This document shows positions 3,421-30,518 of a DNA stretch of 64,000 nt, piece after piece. The DNA lies in the NCBI GenBank assembly GCA_050734135.1, contig JBOHUG010000054.1:8189-72188 (forward strand), written 5' to 3'. Below the pieces are notes generated by a model. It was not told the DNA's origin. It did no database searches and was given only the letters and a program-made list of their open reading frames with translations. Positions within the stretch are counted from its first letter, which is position 1; each line of letters starts with the position of its first letter. The position numbers and the translations under genes were made by a program. The DNA is from Candidatus Dormibacteria bacterium (GTDB taxonomy: Bacteria > Chloroflexota > Dormibacteria > Aeolococcales > Bog-877).

Positions 3421-3460
3421 CCTGCAGAGAGTCCGGTCCCTGGAGCGGTGCGCTGAGGAG

Positions 3461-4994: not shown

Positions 4995-5045
4995 CTTCAA
5001 ACCTCCTGCACCGGTCCGGCGAGTCCCAGCGAGATCAGCCCCCGG

Positions 5046-7724: not shown

Positions 7725-7744
7725 GCCCCGCCCCCAAGGAGTTG

Positions 7745-8674: not shown

Positions 8675-10080
8675 TCACCCCGGGGCCGCACCTGCGGGTC
8701 ATGAAGTTTGGCGGCACCTCCGTCGGAGACCCGGAGCGGATGGCGGCGACCGCCAGGATCATTCAAGAAAACGCCACTCCTGGTCAGCTGGTGGTGGTCG
8801 TCTCCGCGATGCAGCAGGTGACGGCGTCCCTGCTCGCGGCCGCCACCGCGGCGAGCGCCCGAGAGACAGAGACCTGGCAGGCGATCGGGGAGGAGCTGCG
8901 GCGGCGCCACACCGAGGTCTGCGACGGGCTGGTCGCGGTCGAGGAGCGCCCGGCGATCCAGGCTCAGATCGACGCCGAGCTCTCCACCTTCAAGGACTTC
9001 TGCGTCGGCTTCTCCCTGGTCCGCGAGCTCACCCCCAGGGCTCTTGACTCCCTCTCTTCTCTGGGAGAGGTGATGTCCGCCACCCTGCTGGCCGCGGTGC
9101 TTCGGGCCGGCGGGCTTCGGGCGGAGGCGGTCGACGCCACCGAGGTGATCGTCACCGATGACGGGTTCGGCAACGCCTCGCTCCTCTTCGAGCCCACCAA
9201 CCAGAAGGTTCGGGGCCGCATCGGACCGCTCCTGCAGCGGCGGGTGGTGCCGGTGGTGACCGGCTTCCGGGCGGCCACCAGCGACGGCAGCTGCACCACC
9301 CTGGGCCGGGGCGGCTCCGACTACAGCGCCACCATCCTGGGCGCCACCATCCCCGCCAACGCCATCTGGATCTGGACGGATGTCGACGGAATGATGACCG
9401 CCGATCCGCGGTTGGTGCCGCAGGCTAGGGTTATCCCCGAGCTCTCCTACCGGGAAGCGATCGAGCTGTCGTTCTTCGGGGCCCGGGTCCTGCACCCCAA
9501 GGCGCTCGACCTTCCCTTTCTGGCCGGGATCCCGGTCCTGATCAAGAACAGCTTCAATCCCGGGTCCGCCGGCACCGAGATCGGCGGCTCCCGTCCGAGT
9601 CGCCCTGGGGTCAGGGCCATCGCCTCCACTGCGGAGACCTCCCTGTTCACCGTCTCCGCCACCCGTTCGATGTCCTTCACCCGCCTGGCGGCGCAGGTCT
9701 TCGGGGCGCTGGATGCAGATCGGATCAGCACCCTGGTGGTGACCCAGTCCTCGGCGGAGAACGTCATCTCGTTCGTGGTCAACGGCGCCGACGCGGCCCG
9801 GGTCAGACGGCGGCTGGAGCGGGAGCGGGGATCGCTTCGCGGCGGATCGTCCGTCGCGGCGGTGGAGGAGCTGCCCGACGTGGGGGTGGTGGTGGCGGTG
9901 GGAGAGGGGATGAAGGGCACGCCCGGGATTGCCGCCCGGATCTGCGGCTCGATCGCCCGCTTGGGGATCAACATCGTCGCGATCGCGCAGGGCTCCTCCG
10001 AGCTCAGTGTGTCTCTGGTCGTGAAATCGACTGACCTCCCGGCCGCCGTCGTTGCAATGCACCAGGAGTTCGGGCTCTAA
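8671..10080 (+). CDS. lysC: aspartate kinase
   Basis: N-terminus VMKFGGTSVGD. Kinase domain plus C-terminal ACT domains. GTGA overlap with the thrB stop. Alternative ATG start at 8701. Confidence 0.85.
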   Translation: MITPGPHLRVMKFGGTSVGDPERMAATARIIQENATPGQLVVVVSAMQQVTASLLAAATAASARETETWQAIGEELRRRHTEVCDGLVAVEERPAIQAQIDAELSTFKDFCVGFSLVRELTPRALDSLSSLGEVMSATLLAAVLRAGGLRAEAVDATEVIVTDDGFGNASLLFEPTNQKVRGRIGPLLQRRVVPVVTGFRAATSDGSCTTLGRGGSDYSATILGATIPANAIWIWTDVDGMMTADPRLVPQARVIPELSYREAIELSFFGARVLHPKALDLPFLAGIPVLIKNSFNPGSAGTEIGGSRPSRPGVRAIASTAETSLFTVSATRSMSFTRLAAQVFGALDADRISTLVVTQSSAENVISFVVNGADAARVRRRLERERGSLRGGSSVAAVEELPDVGVVVAVGEGMKGTPGIAARICGSIARLGINIVAIAQGSSELSVSLVVKSTDLPAAVVAMHQEFGL

Positions 10081-10090
10081 AGTCTGGCCG

Positions 10091-11374
10091 ATGGCTCGCA
10101 CCTTCCTGCGTTGCTCGGATCCAGGGTGTGCCCAAGAGAGCGCGGCGATCGGGATCTCCTACGCCTGTGCTACCTGTGGCGGGCTGCTGGAGGTCGGCTA
10201 CCAGTTCGACAGCCCCGACCTTGACCTGTGGCAGGGGGCCTGGCAGCGCCGCCAGCGCGGCAGTGGCGAGGCGGACAGGAGTGGAGTCTGGCGCTTTCGG
10301 GAGCTGCTGCCCTTCCTGTCCGAGCGGGAGCACCCGATCACACTCGGAGAGGGATCCACCCCGTTGGTCAGCTCGCCGGAAGCTGCCAGCTGGGCTGGGC
10401 TGAGCCGCCTGCAGGTGAAGCATCAGGGGGTCAACCCGACCGGATCCTTCAAGGATCTGGGGATGACAGCCTGCATCAGCCACGCCGCCTCCCTGGGCGC
10501 TCGGGTGGTCGCCTGCGCCTCGACCGGGAACACCTCGGCCTCGATGGCCGCCTACGCCGCCCGCGCCGGGATGCCGGCGCTGCTGTTGGTTCCCGAGGGG
10601 GCGGTCTCAAGCGCCAAACTGGCCCAGGCGATCGATTTCGGAGCCCTGGTGGTGGAGACTGGCCAAAACTTCGACCAGGCGCTGGAGCTGCTCCGCCGGG
10701 TCTCGGCCCAGCTCGGTTGGTATGTGGTGAACTCGATCAATCCCTATCGGATCGAGGGCCAAAAGACGGTTGTGGCGGAGCTGCTGGAGCAGCGGGGCTG
10801 GCGGGTACCGGACTATCTGGTGGTACCGGGGGGGAACCTGGGCAACGTCTCCGCGCTGGCCAAGGGGCTGATGGAGCTGGCCAGCTTCGGTCTGATCGCT
10901 AACATCCCTAGGCTGATCGTGGTCCAAGCGGATGGTTCGGATCCCTTCTTCAGGCTGTGGGCTGGCGGGGGAGACACCCTGGAGCCACTGCCAGAGCCCC
11001 ACACCCGTGCCACCGCGATCCGGATCGGAAGTCCCGCCAACTGGTCGAAGGCGCTGCGCGCCCTGCGCTGGTCCGAAGGCAGCTGTGAGTCCGTCACCGA
11101 CCAGGAGATCGCTGCCGCCAAGGAGGCACTGGGACGAGACGGGATCGGCTGCGAGCCCGCCTCGGCCACCACGCTGGCTGGGCTGCGAAAGCTCCGCCAG
11201 GGTGGGCATATCGAGGAGGACGCGGACGTGGTGGCGATCCTGACCGGGCACCAACTGAAGGACGTGGACTACATCCTGGAGCAACGCGCGGCACGGGACC
11301 GGACACTCAGGCTGGAAGCGGACCCAGAAACAGCGGTGGAACTACTCCGGGAGTGGTTGGAGCGGCTCGGCTAG
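10091..11374 (+). CDS. thrC: threonine synthase (ThrC family), paralog 2
   Basis: NPTGSFKDLGM PLP site. N-terminal Cys cluster CSDPGC...CATCGG. About 30% identity to paralog 1. Confidence 0.8.
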   Translation: MARTFLRCSDPGCAQESAAIGISYACATCGGLLEVGYQFDSPDLDLWQGAWQRRQRGSGEADRSGVWRFRELLPFLSEREHPITLGEGSTPLVSSPEAASWAGLSRLQVKHQGVNPTGSFKDLGMTACISHAASLGARVVACASTGNTSASMAAYAARAGMPALLLVPEGAVSSAKLAQAIDFGALVVETGQNFDQALELLRRVSAQLGWYVVNSINPYRIEGQKTVVAELLEQRGWRVPDYLVVPGGNLGNVSALAKGLMELASFGLIANIPRLIVVQADGSDPFFRLWAGGGDTLEPLPEPHTRATAIRIGSPANWSKALRALRWSEGSCESVTDQEIAAAKEALGRDGIGCEPASATTLAGLRKLRQGGHIEEDADVVAILTGHQLKDVDYILEQRAARDRTLRLEADPETAVELLREWLERLG

Positions 11375-11856
11375 CGGCGAGGCAGAGCCCAGGTCGGACT
11401 GGTCGAACAGCTGGAGTTCGGCGGGAGTTGGTGGTTGAAAGAGGCCGGTCCAGTGCGCCAGTTGGTCGGATCGGATTCGGGCGACGCCCCGCTCCGCTCG
11501 CTGATTGCGGAGCTCCAGGCGAATCCAAAGCTCCTCCTTCGGCACGTCCAGGAAAACCAGCTCCACGGTCGCTCTCAGCTCCCGGGCGCCGTTTCGCTTC
11601 TGATCTCGGTCCGAGCGGGACCAGAACCTGGACTCCAGAGTCAAGTGCCGGCCCTGCCGCAGCAGCTCCTGGGCCTGCCGCCAGTACGCCACCTCGAGCG
11701 TCTCACGGACTCGCTCATCGCGAAGGGAGATCCCCAGCAGGGCCATCTGCTCATCGCCGCAGAGTCGGCGCGCCGGCATCCGCTCTGCCAACTGTTTGAC
11801 CAAGTCGTCTTGCCTGAACCGGGGAGGCCACAGAGCAGGGTCAGTCGACCGTTCAC
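11342..11856 (-). pseudogene. P-loop NTPase (AAA-domain ATP-binding/kinase-like protein) interrupted by a -1 frameshift
   Basis: N-terminal part VNGRLTLLCGLPGSGKTT (GTG start at 11856) is in one frame. The homologous continuation LVKQLAERMPARRLCGDEQMALLG...FLDVPKEELWIRLELRN is in the -1 frame. The switch is at plus-strand ccAAgt (about 11801-11804), an AA homopolymer one base short. Confidence 0.55.
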
Positions 11857-11945
11857 CGGTCCTCTCCGAGTTGACTAGTGGCCACAGCGCCTCGAACGTC
11901 GCCGGTCGCAGACCGGGCGCTCTCAGGGGATCGGGCCGGGAGGGC

Positions 11946-12290
11946 TCAGACCCCAGTCAGCTCCTGAAGGCTGGTCTCCTCCGTTAGTGGGTAGTCGAAT
12001 CGGATCACGTCGAACGGACGCTCCCGCACCCAGGCGAGAAAGCTCTGGTGCAGCGGGTGTACCAGGTAGGCAGCGTAGGCGGCGGAGTCGCTGAACTCTG
12101 TAAAGAGTCCGAACTGGTAGCCGTCAGCTCTATCCAGCGTGTCCCTCCCAAACCTCAGCCGGCGCAGCCCCGGTAACCCCGCCCACCTGGCGATCTGGCG
12201 GCGCATCTCATCCTCCACCTCCGCGCCGGAATCCGCCCGGAGCCGGAACAGCACCAGGTGCTGGATTGGTTGGGACGGCGAGGATTCCAC
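11946..12290 (-). CDS. Dabb family stress-responsive A/B-barrel protein
   Basis: 114 aa. The pattern HLVLFRL...RFGRD...YQFGLFTEFSDSAAYAAYLVHPLHQSF is typical of the Dabb / stress-responsive protein dimeric barrel. Confidence 0.7.
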   Translation of the reverse strand: MESSPSQPIQHLVLFRLRADSGAEVEDEMRRQIARWAGLPGLRRLRFGRDTLDRADGYQFGLFTEFSDSAAYAAYLVHPLHQSFLAWVRERPFDVIRFDYPLTEETSLQELTGV

Positions 12291-12317
12291 TACCTAACCC
12301 GTCGTGGTGGGCGGAAG

Positions 12318-13820
12318 CTAGAAGAACTCAAAGTATTCGTTCTGCTCCCACTCGGTGACCTCGACCGAATCGGCGGCGGAGCCGGCCTCCTCAAGGTAGC
12401 GGTTGTACTCAAAACGCTTGAGCATGACCAGGTAGTCGACGATCTCAGGTCCGAGCGCCTGCCGGAAGAACTGGTCCTTCGCCAGTGCCTCTACCGCCTC
12501 CCCCAGGCTGGCGGGCAGGGCTGGGGCAGCCTCCGAATAGGGGTCCGCCTGCACCATCGGGGGCGGATTGAGCTGGCGCCGGATGCCGTCGAGACCGGCA
12601 GCGATGTTGGCGGCCATATAGAGGTAGGGGTTGGCGGCCGGCTCCCCGAGTCGGTTCTCCAGGTGGGACCCCTGGTCCCCCGGCTGCCCCTGGATCCGCA
12701 GCATCGATCCTCGGTTCTCCAGCGCCCAGTTCACCCGGTTCGGTGCGAAGGAGTACGGCTTGAAGCGCTTGAAGCCGTTGACCGTGGGGGTGGAAAAGAC
12801 AGTCATCGGGACTGCGTGCTCCAAGATCCCGGCGGCGAACTGGCGCCCGGTCACCGAGAGGGCCCCTTGGTCGGTGCTGGCGAAGGCGTTGCCGCCCTGG
12901 TCGGCGTCTTGGAGGGATTCGTGCAAATGCCAGCCGCTCGACGACACGTTGGGGATCCGAGGCCGGCACATGAAGGTGGCGTGGTAGCCGAGCTGGTGAC
13001 AGATCTGCTTGGTGGCGGTTCGGAACAGGATCATGCCGTCGGCGGCTCCCAGGCCGAGTTGGGGGTCGAAGGTGATCTCCGTCTGGCCGGGACCCCACTC
13101 ATCCTCCATGGTCCGGAGCGGCAGCCCAACCGCCTCGAGATGGTCCCGCAGGGGATCGAGTACCTCGCTGATCTGGGCGAGCCTGGTTTCGGAGAGGTAC
13201 TGATAGCCCTGGGCCACGACGCTCACCGGGGGCGCAGGCGGCGGCCAGCCGGTCTCGTTTAGGCCGATCTTGAGCTGCTCTCGGCGGAAGATGTAGAACT
13301 CCACCTCCAGTCCCGCCGCGTACTCGAATCCGAGCTCCCGGGCGAGCTCCAGCTGCCGGCGGAGCACCTGGCGGGTGAAGAGCGACACCGGCTTGCCGTT
13401 GCTGAAGTGGGCGTCCGAGAGCACCCAGGCCGTCTGATTAGCCCAGGGCAGGAACTGGAAGGTAGTGGGGTCGGGCACAAGGACCACATCTGGGAAGCCG
13501 GTCAGCTCAGGGATTCCGAAACCGCCCCCTTCCACGAACGCTGGGGGGAAGACCTTGTTGGCGGTGTCGAGGCTAAGGATGGCCCCCGAGAAGTCGATCC
13601 CGTTGCGGAGCGACAGCAGGAAATCATGAGCCGAGACGAACTTGCAGCGAACCGCCCCGTGCTGGTCCACCACGCCGATGCGCACCGTCCGGACTTCCTG
13701 CTCAGAGACCAGGGCGGTGGCCCGCTCGGCAGCCGCCCGCATGGCGTCGGTGAAAAGGCCGTGCTGCTCGATGAATCCCACCTTGCCAACGGCCAGGTCC
13801 TGCACTGACGTGCTGCTCAT
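12318..13820 (-). CDS. glutamine synthetase family protein (GlnA-like gamma-glutamyl:amine ligase)
   Basis: 500 aa. GS catalytic-domain motifs (EVEFYIF, MCRPRIPNVSSSGWHLHESL, NRGSMLRI) resembling the GlnA3/PuuA/GmaS-type gamma-glutamyl-amide synthetases. Confidence 0.8.
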   Translation of the reverse strand: MSSTSVQDLAVGKVGFIEQHGLFTDAMRAAAERATALVSEQEVRTVRIGVVDQHGAVRCKFVSAHDFLLSLRNGIDFSGAILSLDTANKVFPPAFVEGGGFGIPELTGFPDVVLVPDPTTFQFLPWANQTAWVLSDAHFSNGKPVSLFTRQVLRRQLELARELGFEYAAGLEVEFYIFRREQLKIGLNETGWPPPAPPVSVVAQGYQYLSETRLAQISEVLDPLRDHLEAVGLPLRTMEDEWGPGQTEITFDPQLGLGAADGMILFRTATKQICHQLGYHATFMCRPRIPNVSSSGWHLHESLQDADQGGNAFASTDQGALSVTGRQFAAGILEHAVPMTVFSTPTVNGFKRFKPYSFAPNRVNWALENRGSMLRIQGQPGDQGSHLENRLGEPAANPYLYMAANIAAGLDGIRRQLNPPPMVQADPYSEAAPALPASLGEAVEALAKDQFFRQALGPEIVDYLVMLKRFEYNRYLEEAGSAADSVEVTEWEQNEYFEFF

Positions 13821-13868
13821 TTACCTCTCCTCCTCTTGCGGGCTCCGCCGCCGATCAGCCGCCGGAAG

Positions 13869-14594
13869 TCACCCCGTCGCCGCCCGACGGTCGGTCCGGC
13901 TCAGACCGAGCGCCACCACCTCTCCGGCGGCGAGCCTAACGCGGTGACTGGCGTCAGGGAAGCAGAGGCTGAAGATGGCCTCGTCCGCCGAGTGGAGGGC
14001 AGTGCTGGCAATCTCGGCTCCCTCCAGCTGGAAGCGCCAGCCATCGTTCTCCGGATTGCCGGCGTAGAACAAGAACTCTCCCGTGGCCCCCAGAAACGCC
14101 AGGTTGGCGTTGCCCTCCATCTGCCGATGCACCTCCGGGAGCGCGGAGCTCGCAGCCATCCCCTCGCCCACGAGCTTCTCGCAGAGCCGGAACCCGACCT
14201 CGCTGTCGGCCTCACCGTCCAGCTGACCCGGGAAGCTGGGCCTAAAAGAGTGAGCCCCGGCCAGCCGGCCGTTGTGGGCGAAGGCGAAGGAGCCGTCGTC
14301 GGCCACAAAGGGCTGGGTGTCGGCCAAGGAGACAGTGCTGAGCCGGGAGGGGCGGCGGAGGTGGAGCAGGTAATGGCTGGAGCTGATCTCTCGCAGCTCG
14401 CGCCGGCCCGTCTGGTCATCGCTCAGCTTGCCCGGGTTTCGGTAGCGGCGCACCCGCCCGTTCTCCCGCCAGGCAAGACCCCACCCGAAGCCACCAATGC
14501 CGAGCTGCTCCAGCTGAAGCCCCCAAGGGAGCACCCGCTCAAAAGGTTGGGGCTCGGGCCAGACGATCCCCAAGATTTCACACATGGAGCTCAT
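13869..14594 (-). CDS. class II (Ntn) glutamine amidotransferase domain protein
   Basis: Begins MCEILG, so the nucleophile Cys immediately follows the initiator Met. This is the hallmark of GATase-2/Ntn hydrolases (EgtC/YafJ-like). Confidence 0.75.
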   Translation of the reverse strand: MSSMCEILGIVWPEPQPFERVLPWGLQLEQLGIGGFGWGLAWRENGRVRRYRNPGKLSDDQTGRRELREISSSHYLLHLRRPSRLSTVSLADTQPFVADDGSFAFAHNGRLAGAHSFRPSFPGQLDGEADSEVGFRLCEKLVGEGMAASSALPEVHRQMEGNANLAFLGATGEFLFYAGNPENDGWRFQLEGAEIASTALHSADEAIFSLCFPDASHRVRLAAGEVVALGLSRTDRRAATG

Positions 14595-15222
14595 CCGCTC
14601 GCGACCCGTTGCCGTCCCCGGGCCGGCTGCGGTCCAGGGCCGTCTCAGCCAGGAGGGACTCGGCCAGTTCTAGATCGAAAGATTTGGGGGGCAGCTCCCC
14701 GAGACAGAGCAAGGTCTCGGTGCGCTCGATCCCGCTGATTCTCCAGATCCGCTCGAAGAGCAGCTCGCGCAGGTGCGCCTGGTCACGGGCCCGCAGTCGC
14801 ACCAGCAGGTCGGAGTCGCCAGTCACCACCTCGACCTGCTCTACTTCCGGAAGCTGTCGCAGGTCCTGGACGGTTGCGGACTGCTCGCTGCCCTGCACCC
14901 CAGTCACCCGCACGTACACCAGGAGCCCGTAGCCGAGACGGCCCCAGTCGATCTCCGCCCGGTAGCCGCGAATCACCCCCTGGCGCTCCAGGCGGGCGAT
15001 CCGCTCGGCGACGGCGGGGGCCGACATGCTCACCTCCGAGGCGATCCCGCGTACCGAGCGGCGGGCGTCGCGGAGCAGCAGCACCAGGATCTGGAGATCG
15101 ATTGGGTCGAGGGCAGGCTGAGGAACCGAGGGCGCTGCCGGGGAGCTAGGTCCTGCCGCACCATCAGTAAGGTGGCGGACCGCTTTCACCGCCAAGTCGC
15201 GAGGGGCGCCATCGCTTGCCAC
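14578..15222 (-). CDS. Lrp/AsnC family transcriptional regulator
   Basis: HTH LDPIDLQILVLLLRDARRSVRGIASEVSMSAPAVAERIARLERQGVI followed by a RAM/AsnC C-terminal domain. GTG start at 15222 gives a 45-aa N-terminal extension, and the exact start is uncertain. 17-nt overlap with the GATase gene. Confidence 0.7.
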   Translation of the reverse strand: MASDGAPRDLAVKAVRHLTDGAAGPSSPAAPSVPQPALDPIDLQILVLLLRDARRSVRGIASEVSMSAPAVAERIARLERQGVIRGYRAEIDWGRLGYGLLVYVRVTGVQGSEQSATVQDLRQLPEVEQVEVVTGDSDLLVRLRARDQAHLRELLFERIWRISGIERTETLLCLGELPPKSFDLELAESLLAETALDRSRPGDGNGSRADELHV

Positions 15223-20866: not shown

Positions 20867-21790
20867 TTAGTTGAAGAGCGCGAGCGGCATGCACATGGCC
20901 ACATTCCACATCCCTGCGTCAACCACCTCCAGGATTCGCAGTTGCCCGGCGAGGCTGCAGAGGACATAGGCGTCCTCACGACTCAGTTCGTGTTCCTCAG
21001 ATAGCCAGGTGATCATCGCTCTAGTCGCGGTCTGCGCTCCTTGCATCAGGTCGGGCGCGAGCCCCATCACGCAGTACTCCTCCGATGCCGCCCTGCTCCC
21101 TCCCGCGCCGGGATTGAGGAATGCCGGAGCTGCCAGCGATCGCTTCTGCAGGGTGAAGCGCAAGCTGGCCTGGAGCGGGGATTCCAGGGCTGTGATGCAG
21201 ACCTCGCCGTCCCCCTGAACCGCGTGCGGGTCGCCACACGAGAAGAGGGCTCGGGGAAGGAAGACCGGCAGGTACAGGCGCGACCCCTCGGTCAAATACC
21301 GGTTGTCGATGTTGCCCCCGCCTCGATGCGGAGGAAAAGGTGAGAGCCGCACTCCGCCGCCCGGATTGACGCCCATCGTGCCAAGGAACGGCCGGTAGGG
21401 GATGCGGATTCCGGGGGAGAAGTCAACTCCTAGTTCTGAATCCAATGCGAAGGTACGCAGATAGCCGTCCGGAAAGTCACTTGCGAGTAGGCCGAACCCA
21501 GGCAAAATGGCGGCCCATCCCCACTTGCTGCGCACCAGCTCCAGAACCTCGATGCAGAGCGTATCGCCGGCCTCTGCCCCGACCACCGCAACCGGGCCGC
21601 TCAGGTTGTACATGGTCTCGAAATCGAATCGAACATCGTCAAAGTGGTCGCCGAGCTTGACCTGCCCGGAGCCAGCAACCTGGAGATCGAAGTGGACTAC
21701 GTCGCCCGACTCGACTTCAAGGATCGGCGCTAAGGATTCGTCCCAGTCGTGGTGAATCCGGGCAGAATCGGTGACGTGCTCGCGGCTCAC
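20867..21790 (-). CDS. acetamidase/formamidase (FmdA/AmdA family)
   Basis: 307 aa. FmdA_AmdA-family motifs (NLSGPVAVVGAEAGDTLCIE, GNIDNRYL, CGDPHAVQGDGEVC). GTG start. Confidence 0.8.
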   Translation of the reverse strand: MSREHVTDSARIHHDWDESLAPILEVESGDVVHFDLQVAGSGQVKLGDHFDDVRFDFETMYNLSGPVAVVGAEAGDTLCIEVLELVRSKWGWAAILPGFGLLASDFPDGYLRTFALDSELGVDFSPGIRIPYRPFLGTMGVNPGGGVRLSPFPPHRGGGNIDNRYLTEGSRLYLPVFLPRALFSCGDPHAVQGDGEVCITALESPLQASLRFTLQKRSLAAPAFLNPGAGGSRAASEEYCVMGLAPDLMQGAQTATRAMITWLSEEHELSREDAYVLCSLAGQLRILEVVDAGMWNVAMCMPLALFN

Positions 21791-21792
21791 GC

Positions 21793-22668
21793 TCAGCCTC
21801 CGGATTCTAGGCGAGCCAGGAAGGTGCGCAGGCGCGCTAAGTAAGCGGGGCGCTCCTCGAGAAAGGCGACATGCGCACTGTGCTCGAAGAGAGCCAGTTC
21901 GGCGCCAGGGATAGAGCGGGCCAAGAGCTCCATGTGCTCCGGACGCGCCTCGTCGAAACGGCCACCTGTCACCAAGGTGGGTATCCTGATCTGCCCCAGC
22001 CGATCGACCACCTCGAAGTTGACCAGCTCGCCAGTTACTGGTCCGAATTCGCTGGGACCCCAGAGCGTGGTGTAGACCTCCCCACCGAGGCCATTGAAGG
22101 TTTGCTCGATGCAGTCCGGCCAGGGCGAGAGTCGGCAGAGGTGTCGGCGGTAGAACTCAGCGACTGCGCCCTGATACTCGGGGCAAGCAAAGAATCCTGA
22201 CCGCTCATGGTTCTCCAGCACCGTCTGGACATCAGCTGGTAGCGCGCGTCTCAACTCGGCCGCGTCAGCCAACCAGCGGACAACGCTCACCGGAGTGCTG
22301 CTCAAGATCAGCCCGCGGAGCTGGGGGGCACGCTCGAGCAGGTACTGCAGGGCGAGCATGCCTCCCCAGGAATTACCAAAGAGCACCATCTCGTCGAGTC
22401 CGAGCGCAGTTCGAACCGCGATCAGTTCTTCCACGAAACGCTGCACCGTCCAGGTGATGCTTCCCGCAGCCGCTGGTGATCGGCCGCACCCCAGCTGATC
22501 GTAGAAGATGACCGGACGCTCATCACTGAGGTCGGCGAGAGGCTCCAGATAATCGTGTGGCATCCCCGGTCCGCCGTGAAGGCAGAGGATTGGGGTGCCC
22601 GAGCGATCCTCGCCCGCGATGCAGTACCAAACTCTACCGTCGGCGACATCGATGAACCCTTCAGTCAT
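21793..22668 (-). CDS. proline iminopeptidase (alpha/beta hydrolase, prolyl aminopeptidase family)
   Basis: LHGGPG, GNSWGG nucleophile elbow, and length and architecture of S33 prolyl aminopeptidases. Confidence 0.8.
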   Translation of the reverse strand: MTEGFIDVADGRVWYCIAGEDRSGTPILCLHGGPGMPHDYLEPLADLSDERPVIFYDQLGCGRSPAAAGSITWTVQRFVEELIAVRTALGLDEMVLFGNSWGGMLALQYLLERAPQLRGLILSSTPVSVVRWLADAAELRRALPADVQTVLENHERSGFFACPEYQGAVAEFYRRHLCRLSPWPDCIEQTFNGLGGEVYTTLWGPSEFGPVTGELVNFEVVDRLGQIRIPTLVTGGRFDEARPEHMELLARSIPGAELALFEHSAHVAFLEERPAYLARLRTFLARLESGG

Positions 22669-22710
22669 GGGGCCTTCTGACCGCCGGGTACACGAGGTCG
22701 GCCATCGGCC

Positions 22711-24165
22711 TCAGACCTCGGAGGAGAGCGAGATGCTGGAGAGCTTACGCCGGCTCCGCCACCAGAGGGTCCAGATGATCCCCAGGACGGTCCACCCCAG
22801 CGAGAACCAGACGATGCTGCTACCCGACGCGAAAGGAAGCGAGATCTCCGACACGAAGAACCCCTTGTAGAGGATGTATCCATCGATCCCGATACCCAGG
22901 ACCGGGATGATCCCATTGGTCAACCAGTTGAACTCACTTCGGCGAAATCGGGCGTGGTAGACGATGTTGGCGACATTGACGAAGATGTACAGAATCAGCA
23001 CGAAGAAGACGAAGATCTCCCCGAGGTAGCCATAGGCAAGCGCCACACCGCCCTGCCAGAGGGTGACCGCGAACAGGGCCACTGTCCCAACCACCAGGGT
23101 GGCCACCTCAGCCCGCCAGGGAGTCTGGAACCGTGGGTGAAGCTTGGAGAAGTAATGCCAGACAAACCCTTCTCTGGCAATGGCGTACGTGACTCGGCTG
23201 GCAGCGTATAGGGCCGCGCCGAAGCTGGCGAGAGCCGCGGTGAATCCGGTGATCGGGACCAGTACCGCCCAACCGCCGATGTACTTCTGAGCGATTGGTA
23301 GCACCGGTGTCAGCTGGCCCGCGGTGACGTAGTGCTCCACGGTAGAAACCGGCACCGAAATCGCGAACCCGTAAGAAACCAGCGTCCAGTATCCGCCCGC
23401 AATTAGGGTCATGAGAATGGTCGCCAAGGGAATCAGACGCCGCGGCGTGTGCGACTCCTCTGCGACCGGGGCGATTCCGTCAACTCCTGCGATCGAGAGA
23501 AACGCGAAGATGGCGGCCAAGCTGAGACCCGCGAAGCCCAGGGTTGCCGCTCCGGGGTTGAAAGGCTTGCTTGAGAAATGGCCCAGTGCACCGCCTTTGA
23601 CGACGATGACGATGGCTAGTGCTGCCACAAACGTGCCCTCGATCACCATCAGCACCGAGATGACGGTCGCCGACAGCTTGATGTTGTTGTGTTGCAGATA
23701 ACCGATGATCAGGATCGAGATCACGCCGCCGCCGATGCCGGTCCACGTTGTAGCGCTCAGGTGAAAGTAGGAGAGAAGGGCGTTGAAGAATGTCCCGAAT
23801 GCCGCCGGATAGAGGGCTGCCACCACCACATAGGTGGTGATCATCATCCAGCCCAACCAAAGCCCAACGGCGGGGTATGTGCTCTCCCAGAGCCAGGTGT
23901 ATCCGCTTCCAGCCGACGGTCGACGGTTGTTCATCACCGCGAAACTGACCGCCGTAGGAAGTACGGCGACGGTGATGAGGATAAACAAAAACGGCATGAC
24001 GGGACCGCCGGAGTCAGTCTCCATGAAGCCCATGTTTAGGTAGATGACGGGGGCCAGCGAGAAGTAGGCGAGTCCGATGAAAATCAAACGACGCAGATTC
24101 AGGCTGTTGCGCCGGAGGCCTGGGGTACTGGGTTCGGCGGACTCGTGGGCCGGGATGCTGGCCAC
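22711..24165 (-). CDS. APC family amino acid permease
   Basis: 484 aa polytopic membrane protein. GTG start preceded by AAGGAGGG. Confidence 0.8.
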   Translation of the reverse strand: MASIPAHESAEPSTPGLRRNSLNLRRLIFIGLAYFSLAPVIYLNMGFMETDSGGPVMPFLFILITVAVLPTAVSFAVMNNRRPSAGSGYTWLWESTYPAVGLWLGWMMITTYVVVAALYPAAFGTFFNALLSYFHLSATTWTGIGGGVISILIIGYLQHNNIKLSATVISVLMVIEGTFVAALAIVIVVKGGALGHFSSKPFNPGAATLGFAGLSLAAIFAFLSIAGVDGIAPVAEESHTPRRLIPLATILMTLIAGGYWTLVSYGFAISVPVSTVEHYVTAGQLTPVLPIAQKYIGGWAVLVPITGFTAALASFGAALYAASRVTYAIAREGFVWHYFSKLHPRFQTPWRAEVATLVVGTVALFAVTLWQGGVALAYGYLGEIFVFFVLILYIFVNVANIVYHARFRRSEFNWLTNGIIPVLGIGIDGYILYKGFFVSEISLPFASGSSIVWFSLGWTVLGIIWTLWWRSRRKLSSISLSSEV

Positions 24166-24625
24166 TTTCTCCCTCCTTCTCCGCGGGCGGGTTCGGCGTC
24201 CTCTTTCGACCCCGAAGGGACCGCGCTCCGCCAGGGCGACGCTACTGCGGGAACTGGCTGACTGTCAACCGCATCCGTTTTTGAGAGAAACCCTCGGCTG
24301 GGTTCGGGACGTCTTGCTACGTGCGAGCAGATTCCCGATCAGTTTCGGCGCCGGCCGCTGGCCCCGAGCTCCTTGAGATCGGTGGTGGATTGTTGACATG
24401 GAGACAATCCGGACCGATAATCCCCAGACCACGGGTACTGTCGGGCGGGCTGGGGTTCCAGCAGAGCGAAGTGCCCTGACCGGTTCGGGTCGCACACAGG
24501 AGGGGAGGGCGTGCCAACGGAGCGAAGTGGATGCGTCCGGCCGAGGCTCCCCGGGACCACAAGCCAGCGGCCCCCGGACTCAGGTCGTTGGCACTCCGGA
24601 GCGCTCGGGCAGGGGCATCACCGTC

Positions 24626-25576
24626 GTGGGTGAAGCGGCGGTAGTCGGCCAGACCGACGGGTTGACTGTGCCCCGGTTCGCTGGTCTGACCACATTCGCC
24701 CGCCTACCCCGGCTCGAGGACGTCTCAAGATACGATGTCGCCATCCTCGGCGTGCCCTTCGATGCGGGAACCACCTACCGTCCTGGCGCCCGGTTTGGGC
24801 CCTCCCACGTGAGGGAGTCCTCACGATTGCTCAGGCCGTACCATCCCTACCTCGATGCCGTCCCATTTGACCAGCAGCAGGTAGTTGATGCAGGTGACAT
24901 CAATTGCAACCCCTTCAGCATTGCCGAAGCAATCACGCAGATCCAGTCGGGAGCGACCGCCCTCTTGTCGGGGGGCGGCCGACTGATCACAATCGGTGGT
25001 GACCATACGGTGGCGCTCCCGCTCTTGCGAGCGGTCCACCCCAAGACAGGTCCCGTCGCAGTGGTTCACTTCGACGCCCACCTGGACACCTGGGACACCT
25101 ATTTCGGCGCTCCCTACACTCACGGGACTCCTTTTCGGCGAGCCTCCGAAGAAGGTCTGTTCCGGACGGACCGCTCGATCCACATCGGAATTCGCGGCTC
25201 CATCTATAACCGGACCGATCTGCCTCAGGATGAGAGTCTTGGGTTCGTAACCGTGCACGCCATGGAACTCGAGAGGATCGGCGTCTCCGGGGCAGTGGAG
25301 CGGATCCGTGAGCGGGTTGTTGACACGCCGCTCTACATCTCCATCGACATCGACGTCCTGGATCCTGCCTTCGCACCCGGGACCGGTACACCTGAGTCAG
25401 GCGGACTGAGTTCTCGAGAGTTGCTGGGAATCCTGCGTGGACTAGCAGGGCTCCCAATCGCGTCGGCAGATGTCGTGGAGGTCGCCCCCGCGTACGACCA
25501 CGCTCAGGTGACCGGCATCGCGGCATCCCACGTAATCTACGAGCTGCTGGCGCTTATGGCGACCACACCGCAGTGA
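24626..25576 (+). CDS. ureohydrolase (agmatinase/arginase/guanidino-acid hydrolase family), copy A
   Basis: Binuclear-metal motifs [19 protein letters not shown] and [19 protein letters not shown]. Start set at the GTG before [21 protein letters not shown]. The first 76 codons of the 24398 ORF lack homology. Confidence 0.75.
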
Positions 25577-25811
25577 ACGCCGTCGCGGACGCACGGAACT
25601 TATTCCGAGGGCGCTCCAAATTCCCGCCGCCGGCTCCTCGAACGGGCCCTAGAACACGACCGATCGAGCCTCTCACCCACAGGGAACCCGGGTCTAGGTT
25701 TCCTATCTCGGTGGATCTCCCGACTGATCCAGCAAGTGAACTACCGCGGCGGAGTCGAAGGGAGTGGCCGTCCTCGCGGCCTGAGTCGCGCTAATACAGG
25801 AGGAAGGAAGG

Positions 25812-27242
25812 TTGAGCCTAGAAGTTGCGCCGCCGGCGTCTGGAGTTCTTGGCGGAGTGGAGGTAGAGGGCCACAGCATCGACTTCATCCCCGCAAGCGA
25901 GCGCCACGGGAAGCCTTCGCGTCTCTTCTTCATCTGGTGGTCGTCGAACATGCAGATGACCACTGTCCTGACGGGGGTGATCGCGGCTGCGCTGGGACTC
26001 ACTTTTCCCTGGGCAGTTGTGTCGATCATCGTCGGCCTGGCGCTGGGTGGGGTGGTCATGTGCCTGCACATGGTTCAAGGCCCCAGACTCGGGATCCCCC
26101 AAATCCTGCAATCACGCGCGCAGTTTGGATTCACCGGCACGGTGATTCCGGCGGCTGTGGCGATCTTCATGTACGTCGGCTTCTTCGCCACTAGCAATCT
26201 CCTGGGTGGACAGGGAATCACGGCCACTCTCCCCGGAGTACCACTCAGTGTCGGGATCATCATCTGCGCCGCGGTGACGGCCGCCCTGGCAATCTTCGGC
26301 TACAAAGAAATCCACCGTTGGGCGCGGATTTGGGGATACGGCTTCCTTATCGCCTTCTTCGCCCTGACCATCAGCCTCTTCACCCGCGGAAAGGTCCCGT
26401 CCTCCGTTTGGACCTTCGGAAAATTTGACGGCGGACCTTTTCTGCTGATGCTGTCGATCGCTGCCGTGTGGGTAATCTCCTACGCCGTTTACGCTTCCGA
26501 CTACAGCCGCTATCTTCCAGCCGAAGTGCCCGCCCACAAGACCTTTTGGTGGAGCTATGCGGGAGGCAACCTGGCCTCCTTCTGGCTCCTGGCGTTCGGG
26601 GCGCTGCTGGGTGTAATCCTGCCTAAGTCCATCTCGGCGATGATCGCGGTGACAATCTCACTGGTCGGTCCTCTGGGTGTTCCGATGATGTTCATCATCG
26701 CTCTCGGGGTGATTTTTACCGACACTCTCAACGTGTACGGTGCCACTTTGTCCCTGCTCGCCATGACAGAACAGAAGCGGCGGATTCTTGGAATCGGGAG
26801 ACCGTCACGCATCGCGGTAATCCTTGTCATCAGCGCCATCGCCGCGATAATCGGAATCATCGGTTCCGCAAACTTCCTCACCAACTACTCAAATTTCCTC
26901 TCCTTTCTCTTTTACCTGATCATTCCCTGGAGCGCGGTGAACCTGGTCGACTTCTACCTGGTCCAGCACGGCCACTACAGCACTGCCGCGTTCTTCGACG
27001 CGGACGGTCCCTATCGAGGGGTGAAGTGGTACGCGGTGACGGCCTATATGGTGGGCTTCGTCTGCGAGATTCCGTTCATGAGCACCAGCATCCTGACGGG
27101 GCCGGTCGCCCAGCGGTTGAACGGTGGGGACCTCTCTTGGATCGTCGGACTGCTGGTGGCCGGATTGCTCTACCTCGGATTTGTCCGGTTGGGGCTTGTG
27201 GATCGGGGAAGGAGGAGCGCCACGGCGGAAGCCTCGGTGTAG
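25812..27242 (+). CDS. NCS1 family permease (cytosine/purine/uracil/hydantoin transporter family, CodB-like)
   Basis: SERHGKPSRLFFIWWSSNMQMTT N-terminal signature with 12 TM segments. TTG start after AGGAGGAAGGAAGG. Confidence 0.8.
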   Translation: MSLEVAPPASGVLGGVEVEGHSIDFIPASERHGKPSRLFFIWWSSNMQMTTVLTGVIAAALGLTFPWAVVSIIVGLALGGVVMCLHMVQGPRLGIPQILQSRAQFGFTGTVIPAAVAIFMYVGFFATSNLLGGQGITATLPGVPLSVGIIICAAVTAALAIFGYKEIHRWARIWGYGFLIAFFALTISLFTRGKVPSSVWTFGKFDGGPFLLMLSIAAVWVISYAVYASDYSRYLPAEVPAHKTFWWSYAGGNLASFWLLAFGALLGVILPKSISAMIAVTISLVGPLGVPMMFIIALGVIFTDTLNVYGATLSLLAMTEQKRRILGIGRPSRIAVILVISAIAAIIGIIGSANFLTNYSNFLSFLFYLIIPWSAVNLVDFYLVQHGHYSTAAFFDADGPYRGVKWYAVTAYMVGFVCEIPFMSTSILTGPVAQRLNGGDLSWIVGLLVAGLLYLGFVRLGLVDRGRRSATAEASV

Positions 27243-27297
27243 CAGGCTGAGCAGAGTCGTGAGGAGGCGAGTTGGCACCGCTTTTAGAGGAGTCTCG

Positions 27298-27936
27298 GTG
27301 AGCCACGTCGTGGATGACCTACTCGTCGAAGCAACCACCGCGGCCACCATGTCGGTGGCGCGAGGTAGCGTGGTCGAAGTCATCGACGTAGACGGCCAGC
27401 AGGTGGCCGACTTCGTGGCATTCGCGGCTGACGATTTTTCGGAGTGGTTGTCGACGACCCACACTCGGACTGCGCTGATGCGGCTGAAGTTGTCGGTCGG
27501 AGATGAACTCCGGACCAACCGGCGCCGGGCCATGTTCCGGGTGGTTGCAGATGACGTCGGAGTGCATGACCTCCTGATCGCGATGTGCGACCCCGAGCGC
27601 TACGAGCAGGACTTCGGCCTCGTAGGCCATCGCAGTTGCCGATCGAACCTGACCCGCGCCTTCAGCAATTGGAGCTTGGAGAGCTTCCAAATTCCAGATC
27701 CTCTGAACATATTTCAGAACTCGCCCGTGACCGAACTTGGCGAGATGACGACGGTTGAGCCCCTCTCTAGGGCCGGCCAGAAGCTGACCCTAGAGACTTT
27801 GATGGATGTTGTTCTCGGCGTCTCCGCTTGTCCTCAGGACCAGAACCCCTGTAACGGCTGGAACCCGAGCCGAATCCGGGTGCGCGTCCTCAGCGGTGAA
27901 AGAGATAACCCAGGTGGGGTGAGCGTCGGTGGCTGA
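27298..27936 (+). CDS. DUF1989 (urea-carboxylase-associated / carboxyguanidine deiminase-like) family protein
   Basis: 212 aa. Core VVEVIDVDGQQVADFVAF...MCDPERY is typical of DUF1989. GTG start after AGAGGAG. Confidence 0.6.
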   Translation: MSHVVDDLLVEATTAATMSVARGSVVEVIDVDGQQVADFVAFAADDFSEWLSTTHTRTALMRLKLSVGDELRTNRRRAMFRVVADDVGVHDLLIAMCDPERYEQDFGLVGHRSCRSNLTRAFSNWSLESFQIPDPLNIFQNSPVTELGEMTTVEPLSRAGQKLTLETLMDVVLGVSACPQDQNPCNGWNPSRIRVRVLSGERDNPGGVSVGG

Positions 27937-28014
27937 CCCGCGGATGAGAGTCGCGCAACGCGATCAAGGGCCGCGACAGGGGAGCAGTGGCCGCGCGACT
28001 TATCACGTGAAGGA

Positions 28015-28959
28015 TTGAGTATCATCGAACCAGAACGCCTGAATATGCCGTTCACGGGAATCGTCTCCTTCCTGCGGGCACCGGTGTGCCAAGAGATCGA
28101 TGTCCTGGACGCCGACATCGCCATCCTCGGAGTGCCCACCGACGAGGGGTCGCCCTTTATGCCTGGGTCTAGGTTTGGCCCCCGGAGCATTCGCGAGCAC
28201 TCGATGCGCTTCGTTGGTGATCAACCGGGCTTTTATAACCCGCAGACCAAGCGGCGATACCTGGCCGACGAGCTGGGCCGGAATCGTTTGGTAGATGTCG
28301 GAGATGCCGACATCCTGCCGACTAACGTGGCGGGTACCTTCGAGAACGTCACCCGAATGGTGCATCGCGTGCGCGGTCAGGGCGCCATGCCGGTGGTGCT
28401 CGGAGGCGACCACGCGATCTCGTTCCCAGTAGTCCGCGGGTTCGATGAGGATCTCCACGTCGTTCACTTCGATGCCCACCTGGACTACATGCCGTTCGTT
28501 CACGGCTTGGAGTACACCAACCAGCACGCGTTCCGGCAGATCCGCCGCCTGAAGCAGGTCCTGAGCCTGACTCAGGTCGGGATCAGAAGTATTCGAACCA
28601 GCCAGCGGATGATGGACGACACCCTGGGGGATGGCAATCGAGTGGTCACCATGGAGGAGTTCCGTGGCGCACCCGACCTGGTCATCGCAGGATTGCCATC
28701 TGGGGCACCGTGCTACATCAGTATCGATATCGACGTCCTCGACCTACCGCTGGTGCCGGGGTGCGTTTCCGCCGAGCCAGAGGGGATGAGCTACGGGGAG
28801 CTCAGGTCGGCCCTGTTCGCGATCGCCGGCCATATGAAGGTGATTGGCTTCGACCTGGTAGAGGTGAACCCGCTGCTGGATGTCGGCACCGGGGTAACGT
28901 CTTACTTGGCCGCCCACACCATCGTTGAATTGCTCGGGCGGATCAGGACTGGAGTCTAA
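28015..28959 (+). CDS. ureohydrolase (agmatinase/guanidino-acid hydrolase family), copy B
   Basis: Motifs GGDHAISFP, HFDAHLDYMP and [22 protein letters not shown]. The alternative start is MPFTGIV at 28045. Confidence 0.8.
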   Translation: MSIIEPERLNMPFTGIVSFLRAPVCQEIDVLDADIAILGVPTDEGSPFMPGSRFGPRSIREHSMRFVGDQPGFYNPQTKRRYLADELGRNRLVDVGDADILPTNVAGTFENVTRMVHRVRGQGAMPVVLGGDHAISFPVVRGFDEDLHVVHFDAHLDYMPFVHGLEYTNQHAFRQIRRLKQVLSLTQVGIRSIRTSQRMMDDTLGDGNRVVTMEEFRGAPDLVIAGLPSGAPCYISIDIDVLDLPLVPGCVSAEPEGMSYGELRSALFAIAGHMKVIGFDLVEVNPLLDVGTGVTSYLAAHTIVELLGRIRTGV

Positions 28960-29094
28960 CTTTGACCCGGGCGCCCGCTGGCGCGCCCCTAATCTGCGAC
29001 CGCCTTCGAGTGGAGGGAAGTGGCGGAGATGCGATATCTCACCGACCCGGTAACTGATTCGATATTGGACCGCTGACGGCGTGCGTCAGTCGCG

Positions 29095-29784
29095 GTGGTG
29101 ACCATGGCAGGCAGCGGTTTGCCCCAGCTGAGGCCGCTGGATCGGGACAGCACCTCAAGCCGCATCGCGGCCCGGATACGGTCCGCCATTATCAAAGGTG
29201 CACTACCCCCGGGAACTCAGCTGGCGGAGGTGTCGCTAACCCAACGGCTGGGCGTGAGTCGCGGCCCTGTTCGCGAAGCCCTCCAACGGCTCATCCAGGA
29301 AGGCCTGGTGGTGAGTGGCCGCAACCGGGGGGCCTTCGTCGCCGAGCTCGGCTTGAGGCAAATTCAGGATCTGTACCTAACCCGCGCGCTGATCGAGTCG
29401 GCGGTGGCGGAGAAACTCGCCCAGCAAAATGACGTGCGGTCGCTGGAGCCGCTGGAGGAGTCCCTGGCGCGGATTCGACGTGCTAAGTCGAGCGGGATCC
29501 GCGAGCGCGTCACCGAGGCCGACCTGCGATTCCATACAGTTCTGGTCGCCTCCGTGGGGAGCGATCGGCTGAGCCGCGCGTTTGCCACCCTGAGTGCCGA
29601 AACCAGGATCTGTTTGCGGCAGTTGGCTACGGTGTATCCGGAGGGACGAGACGCAGTGGGCGAGCATCGGGCGATCCTCGACGCGATCAAGTCGGGCGAT
29701 TCACTTCGCGCCAGCTTTCTGGTGCGAGAGCACATGGAGGACTCTGTCCAACAGTTGAGCCAGGCCCTATACCCGGCTAACTGA
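29095..29784 (+). CDS. GntR family transcriptional regulator (FadR/FCD subfamily)
   Basis: wHTH QLAEVSLTQRLGVSRGPVREALQRLIQEGLV followed by a C-terminal FCD domain. Confidence 0.8.
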   Translation: MVTMAGSGLPQLRPLDRDSTSSRIAARIRSAIIKGALPPGTQLAEVSLTQRLGVSRGPVREALQRLIQEGLVVSGRNRGAFVAELGLRQIQDLYLTRALIESAVAEKLAQQNDVRSLEPLEESLARIRRAKSSGIRERVTEADLRFHTVLVASVGSDRLSRAFATLSAETRICLRQLATVYPEGRDAVGEHRAILDAIKSGDSLRASFLVREHMEDSVQQLSQALYPAN

Positions 29785-29894
29785 GTTGACAAGTCGCCAC
29801 TCACCGCTGCCGATCGGAACGCTTTCGTGGGGCCCTTGGCCGGCTCAGGACTCGAAGCGCTGGCAGAGCCGGACCCGAGCCGCGTTGGCCAGCC

Positions 29895-30518
29895 TCAGCG
29901 GAACAATCCGTCGCTGGTCGTGACTGGCCGCCACGGCGGCCGGGTTGCCTCAAAGGCAGCGATGGATTTCTCCTGGCTGAGCGCCATGGCGATGGTATCC
30001 CTGCCGCTCAGCAGGCAGTCCCTCCAGAACGGATCGATGACGAAATCGGCCACTAGGCCTCCGCGATCGCGGACCTGCTGCTGCTGCAGGTCGAGCGCCA
30101 ATCGGTAGTCGCCCGGGGCAGCCCGCGCCCGCAGCTGGGTCACCACGGCGGCGCTGAGCTGCACCGGGAGGAGTCCGTTTTGCAGTGCGTTGGCGGTGAA
30201 GATGTCGGCGAAGGAGGGGGCGATGACCGCCCGAAAGCCCATCCCCAGGAGTGCCCACACGGCATGTTCCCGGGAGGAACCGCAGCCGAAGTTGCGCCCC
30301 GTGATGAGGACGCTGGCGTTGGCATAGGCAGGATTGTTGAGCTCGAATTCGGGGCGAGGCTTTCCTTCTTCGTCATAGCGCCAGGCAAAAAATCCGGCTG
30401 CGCCGTAGTCTCCCCGGTCGGTGCGCTTCAGGAACTGTTTGGGAATGATTTGATCCGTGTCGACGTCATCCCGACTGAGCACCGCTGCGAGCCCCTCGTG
30501 CACGGTGAAGGCCACCAT
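29895..30518 (-). CDS. leuD: 3-isopropylmalate dehydratase small subunit
   Basis: VDTDQIIPKQFLKR and GRNFGCGSSREHA motifs. Confidence 0.85.
   Translation of the reverse strand: MVAFTVHEGLAAVLSRDDVDTDQIIPKQFLKRTDRGDYGAAGFFAWRYDEEGKPRPEFELNNPAYANASVLITGRNFGCGSSREHAVWALLGMGFRAVIAPSFADIFTANALQNGLLPVQLSAAVVTQLRARAAPGDYRLALDLQQQQVRDRGGLVADFVIDPFWRDCLLSGRDTIAMALSQEKSIAAFEATRPPWRPVTTSDGLFR

Follow-up and report, generated by a model that had tools for sequence, protein, structure and literature searches.

A UH1–NCS1–DUF1989–UH2 gene cassette conserved in Dormibacterota, a probable uptake and hydrolysis operon for a guanidino or related compound

We analysed 64,000 nucleotides (hereafter the window) of contig JBOHUG010000054.1, positions 8,189 to 72,188, from a Candidatus Dormibacteria metagenome-assembled genome (MAG; GCA_050734135.1). 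The host belongs to the Dormibacterota and is a soil bacterium of an uncultured phylum. Its UH1, DUF1989 and UH2 proteins (see below) match NCBI proteins of a Candidatus Dormibacteria MAG, encoded on a 118-kb contig, at 100% identity. At this locus we found five consecutive genes which encode a ureohydrolase (UH1), an NCS1 permease, a stand-alone DUF1989 protein, a second ureohydrolase (UH2) and a GntR/FCD regulator (Table 1); the first four are referred to here as the cassette. All five genes had been claimed by an initial annotation made from the sequence alone, and Pfam searches recovered each of them on the same strand and at essentially the same coordinates. The intergenic gaps along the five genes are 235, 55, 78 and 135 nt.

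Table 1 Features at the cassette locus, in window positions.
Feature	Position	Strand	Evidence
UH1 ureohydrolase	24626-25576	+	PF00491 Arginase, 311 bits; 316 aa
NCS1 permease	25812-27242	+	PF02133, 172 bits, profile positions 2-440 of 440; 476 aa
DUF1989 protein, stand-alone	27298-27936	+	PF09347, 164 bits (cut-off 27); 212 aa
UH2 ureohydrolase	28015-28959	+	PF00491, 190 bits; 314 aa
GntR/FCD regulator	29095-29784	+	GntR PF00392, 65 bits, and FCD PF07729, 85 bits
Promoter-like site with overlapping inverted repeat (candidate operator)	24387-24421	+	Consensus scan; repeat read from sequence
Divergent operon: APC permease, proline-iminopeptidase-family hydrolase, short FmdA/AmdA-family protein	20867-24165	-	

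We compared the window proteins with 80 genome loci and 80 metagenome loci (numbered with the prefix L) by tblastn to see how far the gene order is conserved. The order UH1–NCS1–DUF1989–UH2 was kept, at 55-74% protein identity, in at least 12 other loci, nearly all of which are labelled Dormibacterota; the lineage is not Actinobacteria, across which the initial annotation had proposed the comparison. Order and orientation were complete in L001, L004, L005, L007, L009, L013, L021 and L094-L096 and partial at contig ends in L025, L078 and L093, while UH1 was displaced in a variant from an “uncultured Actinomycetes” (L006). Identities to the window proteins were 66-74% for UH1, 60-72% for NCS1, 52-59% for DUF1989 and 67-72% for UH2. 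L001 has the Pfam order Arginase–Transp_cyt_pur–DUF1989–Arginase with gaps of only 45, 3 and 6 nt, a DUF1989 protein 58% identical to that of the window and wholly different flanks. The recurrence of the same four-gene order despite unrelated flanks indicates that UH1–NCS1–DUF1989–UH2 is an operon, which brings known enzyme families together in a new way and is conserved in Dormibacterota. The GntR gene, which had been included in the proposed module, and the surrounding formamidase, amidohydrolase and APC-permease genes were not conserved with the cassette; the FmdA-like and/or APC-permease proteins gave weak family-level matches (27-32% identical) beside some type-B loci (L029, L034, L036, L043 and L049). 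It should be noted that these counts rest on tblastn and that gene calling based on GC content at third codon positions (GC3) mis-called some antisense open reading frames (e.g. L074_5703).

UH1 and UH2 share 35% identity. All six metal ligands (His, Asp-x-His-x-Asp and Asp-x-Asp), together with a downstream Glu, are intact in both enzymes as well as in the five orthologues compared with each. The initial annotation had described full GGDH/DAHLD/SIDIDVLDP sites in both enzymes; this was right for the ligands but not for the letters of UH2, which reads SIDIDVLDL followed by an unusual substrate loop, VPGCVSAEPEGM, where the canonical form would be ...DP..APGTGTP. The best matches of UH1 in the PDB were guanidinopropionase GpuA (3nip, 3e-79), guanidinobutyrase GbuA (3nio, 7e-76) and proclavaminate amidinohydrolase, PAH (1gq6, 3e-74), with bit scores of 270-253 versus 221-197 for agmatinases (2e-64 to 4e-57, with E. 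coli SpeB at 4e-57). GpuA and GbuA of Pseudomonas aeruginosa and PAH of Streptomyces are thus its closest characterised relatives and share its fold, hexamer-type family and metal ligands; however, NCS1, DUF1989 and UH2 are not the partners of gbuA or gpuA. Identity to these three enzymes is roughly 45-48%, judged by eye from alignments and not computed, which is too distant for specificity to be transferred. UH1 also scored narrowly above two NCBIfam agmatinase cut-offs, those of NF002564 (308.6 vs 302) and TIGR01230 (235.5 vs 174.3), which is why public annotation names it “agmatinase”. We conclude that UH1 is an arginase-fold ureohydrolase of the GpuA/GbuA/PAH-like group, and its intact binuclear metal site predicts that it is catalytically competent. 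The UH1 family is large and in cultured Actinobacteria is found with PucR, NCS1 or APC permeases and SDRs.

UH2 fell under every NCBIfam cut-off for agmatinase (135.8 vs 174.3), arginase and HutG (score 121.6 bits). Its best PDB match was the Deinococcus radiodurans agmatinase 1wog (3e-49, 171 bits), followed by the guanidine hydrolase GdmH (7esr, 2e-33, 119 bits), and its substrate loop lies between those of 1wog (PGTSSPEPDGL) and the Bacillus subtilis formimidoylglutamase 3m1r (PGCPAIGPGGL). UH2 is an arginase-fold ureohydrolase of a distinct, widely conserved and uncharacterised clade and is likewise predicted from its intact metal site to be competent. This clade is very large, with an identity plateau of 63-72% and more than 120 clusters at 90% identity among the matches listed. 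The initial annotation had allowed for both ureohydrolases lying squarely among the SpeB agmatinases; instead UH1 was nearer to GpuA, GbuA and PAH, and UH2 failed the agmatinase, arginase and HutG cut-offs alike.

The starts used here are longer than those of the public gene models for this MAG (302 aa for UH1 and 304 aa for UH2). The GTG at 24626 gives UH1 the N-terminus xxxxVGQxDGL which is found in its orthologues and in GpuA, and we therefore regard it as the right start; an alternative, longer reading frame (392 aa, from 24398) begins inside the promoter-like site. More generally, the residues 5' of the public starts are conserved in homologues (VGQxDGL in UH1, RLxMPF in UH2), which favours the longer starts.

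The DUF1989 assignment made in the initial annotation held on profile search, by a wide margin over the cut-off, and the predicted fold agrees (AF2 model with pLDDT 94.9; Foldseek TM 0.88 to 3siy). PDB matches included 3oru (3e-33) and trimethylamine N-oxide (TMAO) demethylase, Tdm (3e-24). C97, C114, C178 and D38 were invariant in 35 relatives and D181 invariant or nearly so. The three cysteines align with C263, C279 and C343 of Tdm, which are its zinc ligands (PMC12560246), while D38 and D181 align with D198 and D346, and the equivalent of H276 is also conserved. The protein has the three-cysteine zinc site of the family to which carboxyguanidine deiminase and TMAO demethylase belong, and we treat it as a Zn(Cys3) enzyme. 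The window protein keeps the catalytic domain of Tdm with these zinc ligands and the D198 and H276 equivalents, but Tdm is a multidomain protein of ~790 aa with a GCV_T domain, whereas the window protein is a single domain of 212 aa, and it scored 125 bits against the Tdm model (cut-off 1100). The initial annotation had further named DUF1989 as the CgdAB family. Membership of PF09347 bears this out, but the protein is not an orthologue of CgdA or CgdB, given the scores against the NCBIfam models UAAP2 (124.3 vs 284.7) and UAAP1 (84.1 vs 205.95) and the single copy. The protein is 33% identical to canonical UAAP2, and the carboxyguanidine analogy may serve only as a lead.

The nearest relatives of the window DUF1989 protein (46-55% identity) were mostly found in DUF1989–RidA–Liv-type ABC–GntR/FCD operons. 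These share with the window the closest DUF1989 homologues and the regulator class, but have no ureohydrolase, and RidA and an ABC importer stand in place of UH1, UH2 and NCS1. Among 80 DUF1989 genome loci, RidA directly followed DUF1989 in 39 and a ureohydrolase lay beside it in 12, with both present in 0. DUF1989 thus has alternative partners, either RidA or a ureohydrolase, so that its own reaction need not act on a guanidine group. Several further DUF1989 contexts were observed. In the Dormibacteria MAG contig JBOHUM010000016 (L009, 4483-11000) a second DUF1989 paralogue, with RidA and a Liv-type ABC transporter, comes immediately after the cassette, so that both types of DUF1989 module are neighbours in one genome. 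A third context (L028, L033, L035, L053, L055, L056 and L068, ~4300-12800) has two paralogues, as in CgdAB, but no carboxylase, in the order Liv-type ABC – DUF1989 paralogue (27% identical) – SDR – DUF1989 – alpha/beta hydrolase – MFS – xanthine dehydrogenase (XDH)-type molybdenum cofactor enzyme – GntR/UTRA. On the Deinococcus ficus plasmid pDFI1 (L092, 6118-7600) DUF1989 comes right after a gene with the annotation of a guanidine N-hydroxylase (heme-dependent, GntA-like); this neighbour and TMAO demethylase together hint at N–O chemistry in the DUF1989 family. In Actinomycetospora (L075 and L076) DUF1989 genes of the cassette clade lie in an uninformative context of Usp genes and an AmiC-like protein, with a formamidase 4 kb away.

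The second gene of the cassette encodes a secondary permease of the NCS1 (cytosine/purine/hydantoin) type. It is presumed to be the importer, with transport probably inward. It scored under the NCBIfam NCS1 and CytX cut-offs (TIGR00800, 90 vs 353), and no relative of solved structure was found by sequence.

The GntR/FCD protein combines an N-terminal GntR winged helix-turn-helix with a C-terminal FCD domain (FadR-type). Its gene was missing from the other loci with the cassette, and it is likely to be a local regulator in this genome only. A GntR gene 51% identical to it heads an aminotransferase-III – UH – Amidohydro_2 – … – UH2 cluster in L098, and FCD-type GntR genes also end the DUF1989–RidA–ABC operons. 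Between the divergent operon and UH1 we found a promoter-like site, TTGACA-17-GATAAT (24393-24421), which matches 11/12 consensus positions, with 3 such sites in the region versus 0.9 expected. It is overlapped by the inverted repeat GATTGT-N10-ACAATC (24387-24408), a candidate operator, and it is not conserved at the other cassette loci. Transcription from this site would leave UH1 a 5' leader of ~200 nt. An alignment of the 420 nt 5' of UH1 from ten cassette loci contained no conserved leader, Rfam returned nothing relevant, including no guanidine riboswitch (gathering score over the whole window; E<=5 in 24000-30000), and no intrinsic terminators were found within the operon.

The association of UH2 with DUF1989 extends well beyond the cassette. 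A DUF1989 gene lay within 3 kb in 38 of 83 UH2-clade loci. Where at least 3 kb was available on both sides (n = 20), DUF1989 was found within 3 kb of UH2-family genes in 15/20 loci and NCS1 in 14/20. The DUF1989 and NCS1 proteins at these well-flanked loci were only 35-45% and 25-33% identical to those of the window, a dissimilarity which indicates that the linkage has arisen again with partners that are not orthologous. What is conserved at the core is UH2 together with DUF1989, often joined by NCS1, and this core is far more widespread than the four-gene order. The recurrent pairing of a ureohydrolase with DUF1989 was seen in Dormibacterota, Actinomycetota, Bacillota and Alphaproteobacteria, and on many soil metagenome contigs of unassigned origin. 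A neighbour-joining tree built from 126 DUF1989 sequences placed those of the cassette in one clade with that of L077 and two Actinomycetospora genes, and UH-linked DUF1989s also fell in several other clades.

The commonest UH2 cluster (L088, L125, L127, L132, L136, L142, L151 and others) carries an XDH-type molybdenum cofactor enzyme, diaminopropionate ammonia-lyase (NF006058, 355 bits vs 276), DUF6282, NCS1, a zinc alcohol dehydrogenase, DUF1989 (divergent from UH2), Amidohydro_2, a cytidine deaminase (CDA)-type deaminase, an isochorismatase-like hydrolase and PucR, and looks like an undescribed pathway of N-heterocycle degradation. Other arrangements were MFS–UH–DUF1989 in L074, MFS–DUF1989–UH1-like (61% identity) in L077, Sigma54 activator – CN-hydrolase – amino-acid ABC – UH – DUF1989 in Aneurinibacillus terranovensis DSM 18919, and LysR / agmatinase – amino-acid ABC (×4) – UH2-like (56%) – DUF1989 on a plasmid of Chelatococcus sp. 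CO-6. A plasmid of Mesorhizobium ciceri has UH–DUF1989 / LysR / amino-acid ABC – UH – UH. One metagenome contig (L172, Ga0066709_100002375, 1-8776) has, within ~8 kb, six paralogous ureohydrolase genes as well as a pair of DUF1989 paralogues side by side. The ureohydrolases which start at 715 and 6000 in this contig have degenerate metal sites, like the metal-free beta subunit of metformin hydrolase, which by analogy suggests heteromeric ureohydrolases there.

We consider it probable that the cassette is a substrate-specific uptake and hydrolysis operon for a guanidino compound, or possibly for an amidino/formimino or N-heterocycle-derived one. The NCS1 permease would import a small nitrogen-rich compound bearing a guanidino, possibly an amidino or formimino group; this compound may be cyclic or originate from an N-heterocycle. 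UH1 and UH2 would act as two independent binuclear-metal amidinohydrolases, each cleaving a C–N bond to give urea (or formamide) and an amine. DUF1989 would perform one extra metal-dependent cleavage of a C–N (or N–O) bond which is not of the ureohydrolase type, either before or after UH1 and UH2; this may be a deimination or ring opening which exposes the hydrolysable group, or a step that acts on the amine product. The operon would be inducible: the GntR/FCD protein would probably repress it in this genome as long as neither the substrate nor an intermediate is present. The catabolic enzymes at other UH2-family loci (XDH-like, diaminopropionate ammonia-lyase, Amidohydro_2 and CDA-type deaminase) were counted in favour of this proposal, as was the promoter-like site with its inverted repeat in front of UH1. 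The initial annotation had described an undescribed import-and-hydrolysis module distinct from canonical agmatine, arginine or guanidine catabolism. That description stands, given the conserved order, the placement of the ureohydrolases and a literature search covering DUF1989, ureohydrolases, guanidino-acid hydrolases and canavanine/hydroxyguanidine, in which we found no description of a module of a ureohydrolase with a stand-alone DUF1989. As a whole, however, the initial interpretation is supported in part, in view of the Dormibacterota lineage, the missing CgdA/CgdB orthology, the unconserved neighbourhood, the wider core of UH2 and DUF1989, and the substrate.

Several observations weigh against this proposal. 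Neither ureohydrolase clade nor the window DUF1989 subfamily contains a characterised enzyme. The urea released would have no consumer encoded nearby, as tblastn found no homologues of urease alpha, urea carboxylase or allophanate hydrolase in the window. The nearest DUF1989 relatives are mostly linked to RidA, ABC and GntR genes and have no ureohydrolase, so that a guanidine reaction is not required. The substrate loop of UH2 is partly HutG-like, and because it also resembles that of formiminoglutamase a guanidino substrate is not established for this enzyme. NCBIfam would call UH1 an “agmatinase”, and plain agmatine hydrolysis is compatible with its scores. Finally, neither the presumed link to GntR nor the candidate operator is conserved, and the gaps between the genes are looser in the window than in its relatives.

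Ordinary polyamine or arginine metabolism, with one or both ureohydrolases being SpeB agmatinases or arginases which lie near unrelated genes by chance, would explain why UH1 passes two NCBIfam agmatinase models and is publicly annotated accordingly, and why an agmatinase (1wog) is the best solved relative of UH2. We nevertheless judge this unlikely, as every agmatinase of solved structure is more distant from UH1 than GpuA, GbuA and PAH are, UH2 fails all cut-offs, the four-gene order with the permease and DUF1989 is conserved amid different flanks and neither arginine decarboxylase nor another polyamine gene was found among the annotated genes of the window (5-53 kb, which is also the scope of the nickel gene searches below). 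A different assignment concerns UH2 only, which could be a HutG-like formimino (amidine) hydrolase releasing formamide from a ring-opened N-heterocycle, with DUF1989 acting on the heterocycle, in purine-, pyrimidine- or imidazole-type catabolism. The HutG score of UH2 nearly equals its agmatinase score, its “PGC” loop matches 3m1r, UH2-family loci carry HutI-like or Amidohydro_2 hydrolases, XDH, CDA-type deaminase, PucR and NCS1, and an FmdA/AmdA-family gene lies 3 kb upstream of the cassette in the window. However, the loop is equally near to 1wog, the FmdA-like gene is not retained alongside the cassette and UH1 clearly belongs with the guanidino-acid hydrolases, which together leave this assignment rather improbable.

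Guanidine itself could be the substrate, with UH2 a GdmH-like guanidine hydrolase or DUF1989 a CgdAB-type carboxyguanidine deiminase. GdmH is the second-best solved relative of UH2, and the cassette resembles the CgdAB pathway in PF09347, the Cys3 metal site and the setting, a catabolic operon for a nitrogen compound which includes its own transporter. CgdAB is, however, a heteromeric pair of paralogues which works with a carboxylase and AtzF, a layout found in its canonical form, with urea/guanidine carboxylase and allophanate hydrolase, in L173. In the window there is one DUF1989 gene, with tblastn finding no second copy, and its partners are of the arginase fold; it scores 124 and 84 bits where 285 and 206 are required. 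The initial annotation had already remarked on the single copy without carboxylase or allophanate hydrolase, as the tblastn search bore out. The guanidine riboswitch, which is frequent but not obligatory with CgdAB, was not found in the window even at the lenient Rfam threshold. We rejected the CgdAB guanidine pathway on these grounds (single copy, scores, no carboxylase, allophanate hydrolase or riboswitch). UH2 is also not a close homologue of GdmH (Sll1077), no nickel-insertion genes of the hypA/hypB type were found in or beside the operon, and an NCS1 permease would be an unusual importer of guanidine, so that guanidine degradation in any variant appears very unlikely. UH1 and UH2 could also be subunits of a single heteromeric ureohydrolase, with NCS1 importing a substituted guanidine or biguanide. 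The metformin cluster (metR2TR1ABCaCb; MefH/DmgH) likewise combines an NCS1-type importer with two arginase-family genes for the breakdown of a guanidine derivative (PMC11271267, PMC11399263), and the degenerate ureohydrolase paralogues of L172 lie beside DUF1989 genes. But MefH/DmgH is an obligate heteromer encoded by tandem genes, with a beta subunit which lacks the metal ligands (PMC11399263), whereas UH1 and UH2 retain every ligand and their genes lie apart, with the permease and DUF1989 between them. The metformin cluster also encodes HypA/HypB nickel chaperones and has no DUF1989, the reverse of what was seen in the window, and similarity to MefH alpha and beta is remote (2e-24 and 2e-15). 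UH2 occurs elsewhere alone with DUF1989, and the UH1 family occurs alone in Dermatophilaceae and Ornithinimicrobium. Identity with metformin hydrolase was rejected for the intact sites, non-tandem genes, missing hypAB and remote similarity, and we regard any heteromer of the two as highly improbable. The canavanine gamma-lyase operon was also considered as a match and was rejected, as it contains no ureohydrolase or DUF1989.

A more specific version of the uptake and hydrolysis proposal is possible, though we advance it tentatively and think it somewhat doubtful. The UH2 clade and a stand-alone DUF1989, usually with an NCS1 or amino-acid-type importer, may constitute a widespread two-enzyme system for a natural guanidine-bearing metabolite outside the known pathways. 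The DUF1989 reaction would then be of a type new to the family, either acylguanidine deimination/ring opening or a redox-neutral N–O cleavage like that of Tdm, and the GbuA-like second hydrolase of Dormibacterota would widen or complete the route. Candidate substrates include cyclic or acyl-guanidines of the creatinine/glycocyamidine type, the oxidised guanine products 5-guanidinohydantoin or iminoallantoin, 2-amino-3-guanidinopropionate and the N–O compounds canavanine, canaline and hydroxyguanidine.

Unexpected enzymes for guanidine and guanidino compounds have emerged since 2020, including CgdAB, GdmH, guanidino-acid hydrolases and metformin and dimethylguanidine hydrolases. To our knowledge just two activities have been characterised for DUF1989, and the literature searched held no description of a stand-alone member. 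The recurrent pairing of ureohydrolase and DUF1989 predicts one more pathway for compounds rich in nitrogen, together with an additional DUF1989 reaction. If this is true, the “agmatinase/speB” annotation of two large protein clades would be corrected and a nitrogen-scavenging trait would be added to the little-known Dormibacterota. The pairing is directly testable, since Chelatococcus sp. CO-6, Mesorhizobium ciceri WSM1284 and Aneurinibacillus terranovensis DSM 18919 are cultured carriers.

In the window the cassette is flanked on both sides by housekeeping genes of amino-acid biosynthesis, with asd, thrC-like, thrB-like, aspartokinase, a gene resembling type III glutamine synthetase (GS-III) and Lrp upstream and leuD, leuC, leuA-like, ilvC, ilvB and ilvD downstream. 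The region from ~20.8 to 29.8 kb has a GC content of 0.60-0.635 versus 0.65-0.70 around it and a GC3 of 0.71-0.78 versus 0.80-0.89, and from these lower values the cassette and the divergent upstream operon may have been acquired together. The divergent operon may be a separate unit for the utilisation of amides or peptides. Its hydrolase was assigned to the proline-iminopeptidase family by TIGR01250 (288 bits vs cut-off 168). Its 307-aa FmdA/AmdA-family protein (20867-21790, minus strand) had been called a formamidase; it is short and scored 84 bits against a formamidase cut-off of 500. Farther upstream lie another APC permease and an Amidohydro_2 protein. A further group of genes on the minus strand (12318-15222) brings together the GS-III-like gene, which could also be gamma-glutamylputrescine-synthetase-like (below both cut-offs), a gene resembling class-II glutamine amidotransferases and the Lrp/AsnC regulator, and may represent a gamma-glutamylation route for amines.

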